DNA of 4,513 nt from a virus. Taxonomy: Duplodnaviria; Heunggongvirae; Uroviricota; Caudoviricetes. Positions within the stretch are counted from its first letter, which is position 1. Each line of letters starts with the position of its first letter. Below are positions 662 to 1,561 of the stretch, piece after piece. The notes under the pieces were generated by a model that was not told where the DNA came from, did no database searches, and saw only the letters and a list, made by a program, of their open reading frames with translations. A program made the translations under genes and the position numbers. The stretch lies in IMG/VR virus record IMGVR_UViG_2706794687_000010; one strand, 5' to 3'.

Positions 662-687
662 AAAAAAACCCGCTCATCGGCGGGTTT
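662..687 (-). terminator. rho-independent terminator downstream of the ORF6N gene
   Basis: Minus-strand RNA forms ACCCGC-CGAUGA-GCGGGU (6-bp GC-rich stem) followed directly by UUUUUUUA. On the plus strand the hairpin is followed by only UUUAAG, so it is effectively unidirectional. It lies about 75 nt after the stop codon at 763-765. Confidence 0.7.
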
Positions 688-731
688 AAGCTGTGTGGCG
701 TAGTAACCACTCTTAACAGGATATTCAACTT

Positions 732-745
732 TTTACGATCGTAAA
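732..745. repeat. 14-bp perfect palindrome TTTACGATCGTAAA with a central GATC (Dam site)
   Basis: Read directly: positions 732-745 are self-complementary. It sits in the 3' UTR of the ORF6N gene, between the stop codon and the terminator. Confidence 0.5.
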
Positions 746-762
746 GTTTTCGGAAAAAATTT

Positions 763-1326
763 TTAAAACCGCATCAACCGCTCCACCAGTTGCTCTTTAC
801 GGGCAACGATCCACCCGTGTTGCTCCAGATAAAATTTAAACCGTTCCAGAGTACATACCATCGCATCGGCGGGTACCTTTTCCGTGAACTCAACCTGACC
901 GTGTTTATCGAAGTGGCTCAGTAATGCGCATCCATCATTTTCGATAGATGTGTTTTGTGCCGCTGGTGGCTGTTTCTGGTTGAAATAACAGTCTTCCAGT
1001 TTTTCGAACACTTCCCACGCCTGATCGGTTTCGAGCATTTTGGCGTGACGGGCTGCGCCACGTTCTGTCCAGAGGATGAGGGAGCGAACGTTACGGGCAA
1101 TTTTCACAGAAACTCTTAAAGAGTTTTCGTTCTTCAACTCTCGTAACGCATCACCTTCTATCAGGAAAAAATGTTTACCTTCTATAAACCGTTCTTTGTT
1201 TCGATTGAAATTGTTTGTCAAACGCTGGCGCTCTGTTCCGTACAAATCAGCCAGCAGCTCTGTTGTCATGACAGGAAGATGGTTATGCGTAAGTGACGGG
1301 AGTTTTTCAATAGACGTGCGATTCAT
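763..1326 (-). CDS. ORF6N-domain protein (phage antirepressor-like, KilA-N/Bro-N superfamily, N-terminal DNA-binding domain plus a ~70-aa C-terminal region), 187 aa
   Basis: An open frame runs 763-1524 on the minus strand. The chosen start is the ATG at 1326 (MNRTSIEKLP...), which has AAAGGA about 7 nt upstream; an alternative ATG is at 1332. The segment TTELLADLYGTERQRLTNNFNRNKERFIEGKHFFLIEGDALRELK...LILWTERGAARHAKMLETDQAWEV matches my recollection of the ORF6N domain signature. The stop is TAA at 763-765. Confidence 0.8.
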   Translation of the reverse strand: MNRTSIEKLPSLTHNHLPVMTTELLADLYGTERQRLTNNFNRNKERFIEGKHFFLIEGDALRELKNENSLRVSVKIARNVRSLILWTERGAARHAKMLETDQAWEVFEKLEDCYFNQKQPPAAQNTSIENDGCALLSHFDKHGQVEFTEKVPADAMVCTLERFKFYLEQHGWIVARKEQLVERLMRF

Positions 1327-1469
1327 AGACATGTCCTTTCGAATATTTTGATTTACCCCTTTTGAGAGGGTGACCGGGCGCTCAAAACCGTCGAAAGTCG
1401 GCGGGCGTATTTCCATTGCTGGTATTGTATTAGCCGCACACCCGGTCATAAACCAAGAATTCTGGACAC

Positions 1470-1497
1470 AAAAAAACCACATGGCTATCGGGTGTGG
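1470..1497 (-). terminator. weak terminator-like or attenuator-like hairpin plus U7 in the ORF6N leader
   Basis: Minus-strand RNA pairs CCACA (1493-1497) with UGUGG (1477-1481) around an 11-nt loop, followed by UUUUUUU (1470-1476). The stem is short and the loop large, so efficiency would be low. It lies between the promoter at 1533-1561 and the ORF6N start. Confidence 0.3.
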
Positions 1498-1532
1498 ATA
1501 CCGCTTTCGAGGTGTTTTGAGCACCGCGGGGA

Positions 1533-1561
1533 AATGTAAACTGCAAACCTGAAACTGTCAA
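1533..1561 (-). promoter_or_regulatory. strong sigma70-like promoter (-35 TTGACA, 17-bp spacer, -10 TACATT) upstream of the ORF6N gene
   Basis: Minus-strand reading gives TTGACA (1556-1561), a 17-nt spacer and TACATT (1533-1538). The -35 is a perfect consensus. The predicted start is near 1526, about 200 nt upstream of the ORF6N start codon. Confidence 0.5.

Follow-up and report, generated by a model that had tools for sequence, protein, structure and literature searches.

A candidate c4-like antisense switch of the sRNA-Xcc1 family in the leader of an ORF6N antirepressor-like prophage gene

Introduction

What is the function, and what is the control, of the single gene that lies between the Q antiterminator gene and the tRNA array in IMG/VR virus record IMGVR_UViG_2706794687_000010 (Caudoviricetes)? 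The whole stretch of DNA that was analysed, hereafter the window, is 4,513 nt long; its minus strand reads as the region of late control in a lambdoid prophage. An earlier note, made from the letters alone, had described the gene (here called ant) as a self-contained moron with its own promoter, a long leader and its own terminator, standing in the cargo position where Stx phages carry stx, and held that no function could be assigned to it from sequence. The open reading frame (ORF), the promoter-like site, the hairpin followed by seven uridines (U7) and the terminator were all found again at the same coordinates on the minus strand. The observation is thus confirmed, and its interpretation is partly supported.

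Our reading, to which we give a probability of about three in four, is that ant encodes an antirepressor of the AnrP/ORF6N type belonging to the prophage's own anti-immunity (induction) circuit, and that its expression would be gated by RNA. Two c4-type antisense switches appear to lie in series on the minus strand, and an sRNA-Xcc1-family RNA in the ant leader would act as an immunity RNA in the manner of c4, preventing translation of ant and probably assisting termination in the leader. What had been taken for a simple promoter-leader-gene-terminator unit would then be an RNA-gated anti-immunity switch. Locus numbers beginning with L are our own.

An sRNA-Xcc1-family RNA with matching words on both flanks

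An Rfam scan of the window gave four RNA elements above their gathering scores, all colinear on the ant strand (Table 1). The one nearest to the gene lies in the leader of about 200 nt. The earlier description of this leader was right about the hairpin and U7, but the leader is not anonymous: it contains an RNA that the sRNA-Xcc1 family model fits from end to end, and with it what appears to be a complete second switch. The C4 model gave no match at 1447-1364 at E<=5. In its build the RNA resembles C4: a UAUG stands directly ahead of a long closing stem, which encloses two hairpins and an unpaired junction and is followed by an RCC tail, here ACCC. Its possible release by RNase P would be a matter of resemblance to C4 only (the closing stem, the ACCC/RCC tail and the UAUG before the stem).

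Two words of this RNA, CUUUCGA in the loop of hairpin 2 (b', 1397-1391) and UUUUGAG in the junction (a', 1387-1381), have exact complements of 7-9 nt on both flanks of Xcc1. The upstream copies (a1, b1) precede the hairpin and U7, and the downstream copies (a2, b2) lie ahead of ant. We refer to the promoter, the promoter-proximal short RNA with a1/b1, Xcc1 and the downstream copies as module 2; judged by its sequence, it is complete and would be the module that controls ant. The short RNA itself had no Rfam match, and no LexA box was seen by eye at the promoter. A three-way GCGG/CCGC/GCGG arrangement, considered as an antiterminator-terminator in the leader, was set aside: several modules have it, and it is absent from the window, L065 and L001.

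Covariation of the words across diverged modules

A DNA pattern derived from the Xcc1 core recovered 76 viral contigs with 52 unique modules, among which 30 distinct hairpin-2/junction sequences were compared. In 24 of the 30 modules a hairpin-2 word of 6 nt or more had complements on both flanks, against 25 of 866 mismatched module pairs (2.9%); with at least 7 nt the figures were 20 of 30 and 3 of 866 (0.3%). These modules contain 23 distinct hairpin-2 words. Read by eye, the upstream, loop and downstream words are TCGAAAG/CTTTCGA/TCGAAAG in the window, TCAGTAG/CTACTGA/TCAGTAG in L069, CAGAAAG/CTTTCTG/CAGAAAG in L091 and TTAGCA/TGCTAA/TTAGC in the Symbiopectobacterium locus L001. The downstream word b2 is separated from the start codon by 0-12 nt across the modules, and overlaps or abuts the Shine-Dalgarno sequence in nearly all of them. 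In non-enteric modules the junction word covaries as well (TTTCGAG/CTCGAAA, GTGTTCAGC/GCTGAACAC and CTACGA/TCGTAG).

These counts bear on the explanation that stays closest to the earlier note: a plain autonomous moron with a constitutive promoter and a simple attenuator, in which Xcc1 is an independent small RNA (sRNA) acting in trans on host mRNAs and has no role for ant. A promoter and a terminator do frame the gene, and work on Xanthomonas and Xylella presents sRNA-Xcc1 as a trans-acting, possibly Hfq-dependent, virulence-linked sRNA. However, 23 loop words in 30 modules, with both flanking targets changing along, are not what a conserved target in the host would lead one to expect. The downstream word also keeps its place close to the start codon, and an ant gene at this site is the rule among relatives, not an insertion. 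We consider this explanation highly improbable.

The same modules inform on the remaining parts of the leader. A promoter with at least 9 of 12 consensus matches was found at the corresponding place in 20 of the 30 diverged modules, and its sequence differs between them (L065/L066, L091, L001, L109 and others). In 28 of the 30 there is a T-run, in most cases at a distance of 56-62 nt from the predicted start. The stem ahead of it is 91% paired, compared with 78% in shuffles, none of which (0/500) reached this value, and with 18-40% in slid controls; three of its pairs have both sides changed, that is, compensatory changes. Pair counting was restricted to this terminator stem; the a1 hairpin lies in different registers between modules in the MAFFT alignment. 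The separate promoter proposed in the earlier note is therefore probably real, its position being kept although in the window by itself the match does not exceed chance, and the hairpin with U7 can be retained as the end of a short RNA of about 57 nt or as an attenuator.

The product of ant

Which protein would such a switch control? The likely start is the ATG at 1326, with AAGGA (1338-1334) 7 nt ahead of it; an alternative in-frame ATG (1332) is not kept in the homologue of L069. The predicted protein matches the ORF6N profile PF10543 at residues 13-97 (74.4 bits against a cut-off of 27.8, E 8.8e-21), which bears out the earlier domain assignment, and it matches the PHROG anti-repressor family phrog_2379 over its full length (E 4e-85). 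It is 49% identical to AnrP (STM2616) of Salmonella prophage Gifsy-1 over 184 of 187 residues (E 6e-58), both proteins being 187 aa long. AnrP is a tested antirepressor-like protein: when it is expressed, the antQ operon is transcribed more strongly and the Gifsy-1 prophage is induced (PMC4825925). A function can thus be proposed where the earlier note had assigned none, and its idea that the protein might act on prophage repressors appears, by analogy with AnrP, to be right.

The genes that follow the modules point the same way. After 21 distinct modules the encoded proteins carry KilA-N (5), ORF6N (5), Bro-N (4), P22 antirepressor (3) or Rha (1) domains. The Xcc1 module thus appears to serve genes of antirepressor type in general as a front end.

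The ORF6N, KilA-N and Bro-N modules bind DNA and have mixed functions. The protein might instead be a regulator of another kind that binds DNA, a factor that is toxic or acts on the cell cycle, or a protein directed against host defence, silenced by the same RNA switch. The only PADLOC matches, to candidate system PDC-S05, would fit such a role, though they are weak and domain-level (E 1e-7). A structure search found no relative of Ant with a solved structure, no NCBIfam name was found for it, and the accessible text of PMC4825925 gives no direct binding partner of AnrP. Against these points stand the full-length match to PHROG anti-repressor families, the identity to a protein that induces its prophage and raises antQ operon transcription (PMC4825925), and the P22-type Ant proteins that are preceded by the same RNA switch in other modules. 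A non-antirepressor role is, in our estimate, quite unlikely.

The terminator of the ant transcript was called strong in the earlier note, and this holds: it has 8 pairs and a dG of -12 kcal/mol (z -3.45), and none of 200 shuffles was as good.

Proposed mechanism

From the identities of the elements, their complementarity and covariation and the homology of the gene, we infer a scheme that leads from promoter activity through RNA processing, a translation block and help to termination, to a repressor target. Transcription from the sigma-70 promoter (1561-1533) would start near 1526, and the majority of transcripts would end at the weak hairpin-U7 (1497-1470), giving an RNA of about 57 nt that displays CUCAAAA and UCGAAAG. 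Read-through transcripts would hold Xcc1 (1447-1364), which would be excised, by RNase P if the analogy with P1 c4 extends so far, and would accumulate. Its words UUUUGAG and CUUUCGA would pair with the second copies (1366-1360, 1342-1336), and since b2 overlaps the ant Shine-Dalgarno, this pairing is proposed to block ribosome loading. Pairing with the first copies in nascent leaders would probably boost termination at the weak hairpin, an effect summarised for P4 CI RNA in PMC4825925; translation block and termination together would amount to a double lock. Ant would be produced once target RNA exceeds Xcc1, and would then inactivate a prophage repressor. The excess could come from Q-driven read-through from the late promoter or from an abundant short decoy RNA; by analogy with IsrK of Gifsy-1, the ~57-nt RNA with a1/b1 could itself be such a decoy or activator when abundant. 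In an Escherichia coli O157:H7 EDL933 lysogen, an Xcc1 homologue reaches roughly the level of RNase P RNA, with little coverage by ribosomes (PMC5331693), which fits a stable processed RNA made in lysogeny.

Several points weigh against this reading. Each antisense pairing spans only 7 nt. The exact-match comparison failed in 6 of the 30 modules; in three of these (L091a, L112, L140) no downstream start codon was called, and in the other three (L111, L155, L163) the exact word was missed, in some apparently through wobble pairs or mismatches. The junction word a' is near-constant in enteric modules, so its covariation is weaker than that of the loop word. In the window taken by itself, the promoter match is at chance level (5 promoter-like sites against 4.5 expected from shuffles) and the U7 hairpin is weak (62-nt RNA, minimum free energy -10.7, z +0.9); both rise above chance because their positions are kept, and the stem covaries, in other modules. 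On the side of the protein, the antirepressor activity is taken over from a homologue of 49% identity, with conservation between Ant and AnrP lower in the C-terminal half. The published view of sRNA-Xcc1 as a trans-acting sRNA, mentioned above, belongs here too.

Could Xcc1 act solely through premature termination of the leader, in the style of P4 CI and N15 CA, leaving a2 and b2 to processing or folding? The words a1 and b1 stand immediately upstream of a weak terminator whose position is conserved, P4 CI RNA, which works through premature termination, provides a precedent (summarised in PMC4825925), and the N15 immA leader has the layout of an IsrK-like element and C4 too. However, the presence of b2 at the Shine-Dalgarno in nearly all modules, covarying with the loop, would be difficult to understand if b2 did nothing at the ribosome binding site (RBS), and P1 c4 acts on translation (PMC8198154). 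We find a termination-only mechanism doubtful.

Another possibility is that module 2 is a silent relic and that all ant transcripts come from the late promoter through read-through or Q antitermination, the situation known from Gifsy-1. There, deletion of the isrK promoter (PisrK) abolishes anrP transcription, with 280 Miller units in its presence and 3 in its absence (PMC4825925); the chance-level promoter match of the window is in line with this. Gifsy-1-type loci, however, have neither TTGACA nor module 2, so the PisrK result does not apply to the module-2 promoter. L001, L091 and L185, the copy in an O157 nin region, keep the promoter at equal distance although they have no late promoter upstream, and the Xcc1 homologue is abundant in the O157 lysogen (PMC5331693). 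A silent module 2 seems to us very unlikely, and we retain the reading in which it is an active, c4-like switch.

An orphan upstream module and tandem loci

Directly after Q, the window carries a further set of elements (module 1: the late promoter, an IsrK-like RNA with a1/b1, and a C4 RNA), which is a Gifsy-1-type switch whose second downstream target has been lost. The earlier note had recognised a PR'/tR' module here. Its sites are confirmed, but the description was incomplete, as an IsrK/c4-a1b1 element and then the C4 RNA are also present. The isrK promoter of Gifsy-1 occupies the corresponding position after Q (PMC4825925), and IsrK has been described as a short transcript from an antitermination-regulated promoter (PMC7547250).

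The C4 RNA of the window has a minimum free energy of -44.9 (z -5.0). Its junction is complementary to UUGGAAC at 1741-1735 in the IsrK-like element and to a second UUGGAAC that remains downstream of C4. For its hairpin-2 loop, no complement was found from C4 to the ant start. The similarity of the window to Gifsy-1-type loci stops after GATTGGAACCTGACGGTG (~1563), a few bases past UUGGAAC, and the second C4 target is missing together with the RBS that it covered. This loss, and the mismatch in L069 between the C4 junction and the site following C4, mark module 1 as an orphan in the tandem loci described below.

Two candidates for lost parts of module 1 were rejected. An 8-nt complement of the C4 loop within the ant coding region (1032-1025) does not covary, the coding sequence being the same despite other C4 loops. 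The frame that opens at the C4 ATG (1660) has 76 codons and stops at 1430, 104 nt short of the ant ATG at 1326. It was discarded as an icd/orf45 analogue because its length ranges from 14 to 76 codons in relatives and its stop is distant from ant. The stop overlapping the ant start that would allow orf45-like translational coupling is thus not present in the window; 45 codons reaching the ant start were seen only in the Gifsy-1-like L087.

If module 1 belongs to a Gifsy-1-type switch, where does module 2 come from? The architecture was compared in 80 viral contigs encoding relatives of Ant. Most have the Gifsy-1 layout, in which C4 ends about 60 nt before ant; these loci have neither the -35 TTGACA nor any other part of module 2. 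Their C4 junction covaries with the IsrK hairpin-2 site and with the site just after C4 (GGAAC, TAGGAAC, GGTCTC, GGCGTC, TTCGAAC; one code pair is GGAAC / GAAACCGA), and their C4 hairpin-2 loop covaries with a site beside the ant Shine-Dalgarno. This is the known logic of P1 c4 (PMC8198154). Fewer loci carry an additional ~235 nt with Xcc1: the 100%-identical copies of the window, L065-L069, L091 and L001. Since ant follows Q in most related prophages and in Gifsy-1, the comparison does not support the idea of cargo inserted between Q and the tRNA genes: the gene is already at the site in related prophages, and only the ~235-nt Xcc1 module is variable. Of the moron proposal, a candidate promoter and a candidate terminator framing the gene are present by consensus.

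The locus L185, in the nin region of E. coli O157:H7 TW14359 (1400-2720), contains two complete units in series. The first has a promoter, IsrK, C4 and antA, encoding an ORF6N protein; the second has a promoter, a1b1, a terminator, Xcc1 and antB, encoding an Ant protein. The RNA parts of both units carry no annotation. By its sequence, the window looks like such a tandem pair from which the first ant gene has been lost between GGTG and TTGACA. The corresponding junction in L065/L066 differs slightly. L091 has two Xcc1 modules, the first of which is an orphan. Orphan antisense modules recur ahead of a complete module, intact but without a downstream target and gene, and Xylella Temecula1 is reported to have five Xcc1 copies about 385 nt apart (PMC12189769).

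It is tempting, though tentative and on balance improbable, to speculate that the sRNA-Xcc1 RNAs, rather than being host-directed virulence sRNAs, form a second line of phage immunity RNAs resembling c4, whose specificity is coded in 7 nt, and that orphan copies silence in trans the antirepressors of competing or co-resident phages with the same code. The C4 at 1581-1664, the first Xcc1 of L091 and possibly the five-copy Xylella array would be examples. If so, tandem arrays would constitute an RNA-based repertoire for immunity between prophages.

In the Stx2a phage F765 (L101, 2172-3084, minus strand), an IsrK-like element and C4, with the code TTCGAAC/GTTCGAA, precede an antirepressor gene adjoining int/xis. 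Such module types were also matched in about 150 complete E. coli genomes, and among the matches listed nothing is annotated under them.

Relation to known systems

The gene and its position are known from AnrP of Gifsy-1, and the logic of control is known from P1 c4, P4 CI and N15 CA. How does the window differ from these systems? In the isrK-orf45-anrP-isrJ locus of Gifsy-1 (Hershko-Shalev et al., 2016; PMC4825925), as in the window, IsrK/c4-a1b1 and then C4 (there orf45/STnc1160) directly follow Q, the gene encodes a 187-aa ORF6N protein subject to post-transcriptional gating, as proposed here, and a tRNA gene lies further on. With the order Q, c4-a1b1/IsrK, C4, AnrP, IsrJ, tRNA-Arg in Gifsy-1, the shared order Q-IsrK-C4-ant-tRNA makes the window the positional counterpart of the published isrK locus. 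The differences are an extra promoter, short RNA, terminator and Xcc1 between C4 and ant, the lost second C4 target, and the absence of an IsrJ match after ant in the Rfam scan of the window. In Gifsy-1, moreover, orf45 stops at the anrP start and couples translation (PMC4825925), whereas the frame from the C4 AUG of the window is not conserved.

In immI of P1 and P7 (c4, icd, ant1/2; Citron and Schuster, 1990; summarised in PMC8198154), the antisense RNA likewise lies upstream of the silenced antirepressor gene and on the same strand. Its words a' and b' have their matches both upstream (a1/b1) and downstream (a2/b2), an RBS is covered by the downstream site, and variation of the words determines immunity specificity; all of this we count as likeness. 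By contrast, the RNA before ant in the window matches sRNA-Xcc1 and not the C4 model, an icd-like gene is missing, the Shine-Dalgarno covered by b2 is that of ant itself, a1/b1 lie on a separately terminated RNA of about 57 nt, and the protein is of the ORF6N type. P1 Ant belongs to another domain family.

The systems of the CA RNA of N15 immA and the CI RNA of P4 (seqA/seqC) resemble module 2 as proposed here: the leader starts at a constitutive promoter, contains a terminator and yields, by processing, a small RNA that in turn acts on the leader. CA RNA reportedly works by premature termination. The window differs in having an RBS target too and in the RNA family, which is Xcc1. The N15 immA leader (L186) gives Rfam scores for c4-a1b1/IsrK and C4 (Table 1), which makes N15 CA RNA a member of the C4 family; this C4 match overlaps the start of gene 32 (antA).

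The family sRNA-Xcc1 (RF02221) is known as an integron sRNA of Xanthomonas campestris (Chen et al., 2011). A 2025 paper treats its homologues as trans-acting sRNAs, and one paper on APSE phages notes Xcc1 upstream of an ORF6N gene and says nothing more. No link between sRNA-Xcc1 and antirepressor control was found in the searched papers that name sRNA-Xcc1, most subscription journals being outside the search. Three points thus appear to be undescribed: a role of this family in switching antirepressor genes in cis in the manner of c4, the promoter-proximal short RNA with a1/b1 that belongs to it, and the piling up of orphan modules ahead of complete ones.

Antirepressors can set off the induction of prophages independently of the SOS response, so their silencing decides when prophages, including Shiga-toxin phages, switch on. 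Similar module types occur in the nin region of an O157:H7 prophage, next to int in a Stx2a phage (IsrK-C4-ant) and in the ~150 E. coli genomes mentioned above. If our reading is correct, an Rfam family that has been discussed in terms of virulence of plant pathogens would gain a definite function in cis and a specificity code that can be read, cross-silencing between prophages would be predictable from sequence, and a compact reprogrammable RNA switch of two 7-nt words would be available for testing.

Layout of the window and neighbouring genes

Table 1. Features of the window and of the loci compared with it. Positions refer to the window unless another locus is named.
Feature	Position	Strand	Remarks
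IS3-type (IS3-family) transposase fragment	4513-4100	minus	adjoins DnaB-like helicase gene
DnaB-like helicase gene	3984-2593	minus	
Small ORF and masked N-run	N-run within 2260-2300		between helicase and Q genes
Q antiterminator gene	1807-2214	minus	PF06530; upstream of ant
Late PR'-type/PisrK-type promoter-like site, TTGACC-18-TATATT	1773..1802	minus	directly after Q gene
c4-a1b1 element	1779-1727	minus	RF03163, 50.1 bits, gathering 46.7
IsrK-like short RNA	1766-1690	minus	RF01394, 77.5 bits, gathering 50; terminator 1711-1695
C4-family antisense RNA	1664-1581	minus	RF01695, 71.0 bits, gathering 45
UUGGAAC	1571..1577	minus	remaining downstream target of C4 junction GUUCCAA
Module-2 promoter, TTGACA-17-TACATT	1561-1533	minus	10/12 consensus matches; predicted start near 1526
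a1, CUCAAAA	1521-1515	minus	loop of hairpin GGUG/CACC (1525-1511)
b1, UCGAAAG	1510-1504	minus	upstream target
Hairpin CCACA/UGUGG with U7	1497-1493/1481-1477, U7 1476-1470	minus	terminator or attenuator candidate; ends ~57-nt RNA
sRNA-Xcc1-family RNA	1447-1364	minus	RF02221, 77.4 bits, gathering 53, model positions 1-87 (end to end)
a2, CUCAAAA	1366-1360	minus	loop of CCCU/GGGG hairpin (1370-1356)
b2, UCGAAAG	1342-1336	minus	overlaps ant Shine-Dalgarno AAGGA (1338-1334)
ant	763-1326	minus	187-aa ORF6N-domain antirepressor-like protein; AnrP (STM2616) homologue
Intrinsic terminator of ant transcript	687-666, T-run to 662	minus	follows 101-nt 3' UTR
Four tRNA genes	573-263	minus	downstream of ant
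Orphan antisense RNA modules	window 1581-1664; L069 2658-2742; L091 2663-2747		
N15 (L186) immA leader, c4-a1b1/IsrK and C4	28301-28502	minus	Rfam scores

A protein identical to that of the window is encoded on chromosomes such as CP019689 and CP032523, which we take to be Shigella sonnei. In chromosomal copies encoding it, the region continues into holin, lysozyme, Rz, HNH and terminase genes. In complete E. coli genomes the region never exceeds 87% identity over most of its length, and a scan of species-representative genomes gave only distant ORF6N relatives and one Xcc1-bearing Symbiopectobacterium locus.

The 3' untranslated region (UTR) of ant (662-762, minus strand) has a GUGG..CCAC hairpin ahead of the terminator, at the position of IsrJ in Gifsy-1, and is 92-96% conserved in E. 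coli loci that have the other leader type; it may be the source of a 3'UTR-derived sRNA. The tRNA genes occur in the order Met(CAU), Arg(UCU), Thr(UGU), Gly(UCC), and a promoter-like TTTGCA-18-TATTAT at 612-583 precedes the array. Judging by identical chromosomal copies, the masked N-run falls in a RusA gene. Full 409-aa copies of the IS3-family transposase are present in L102-L107.

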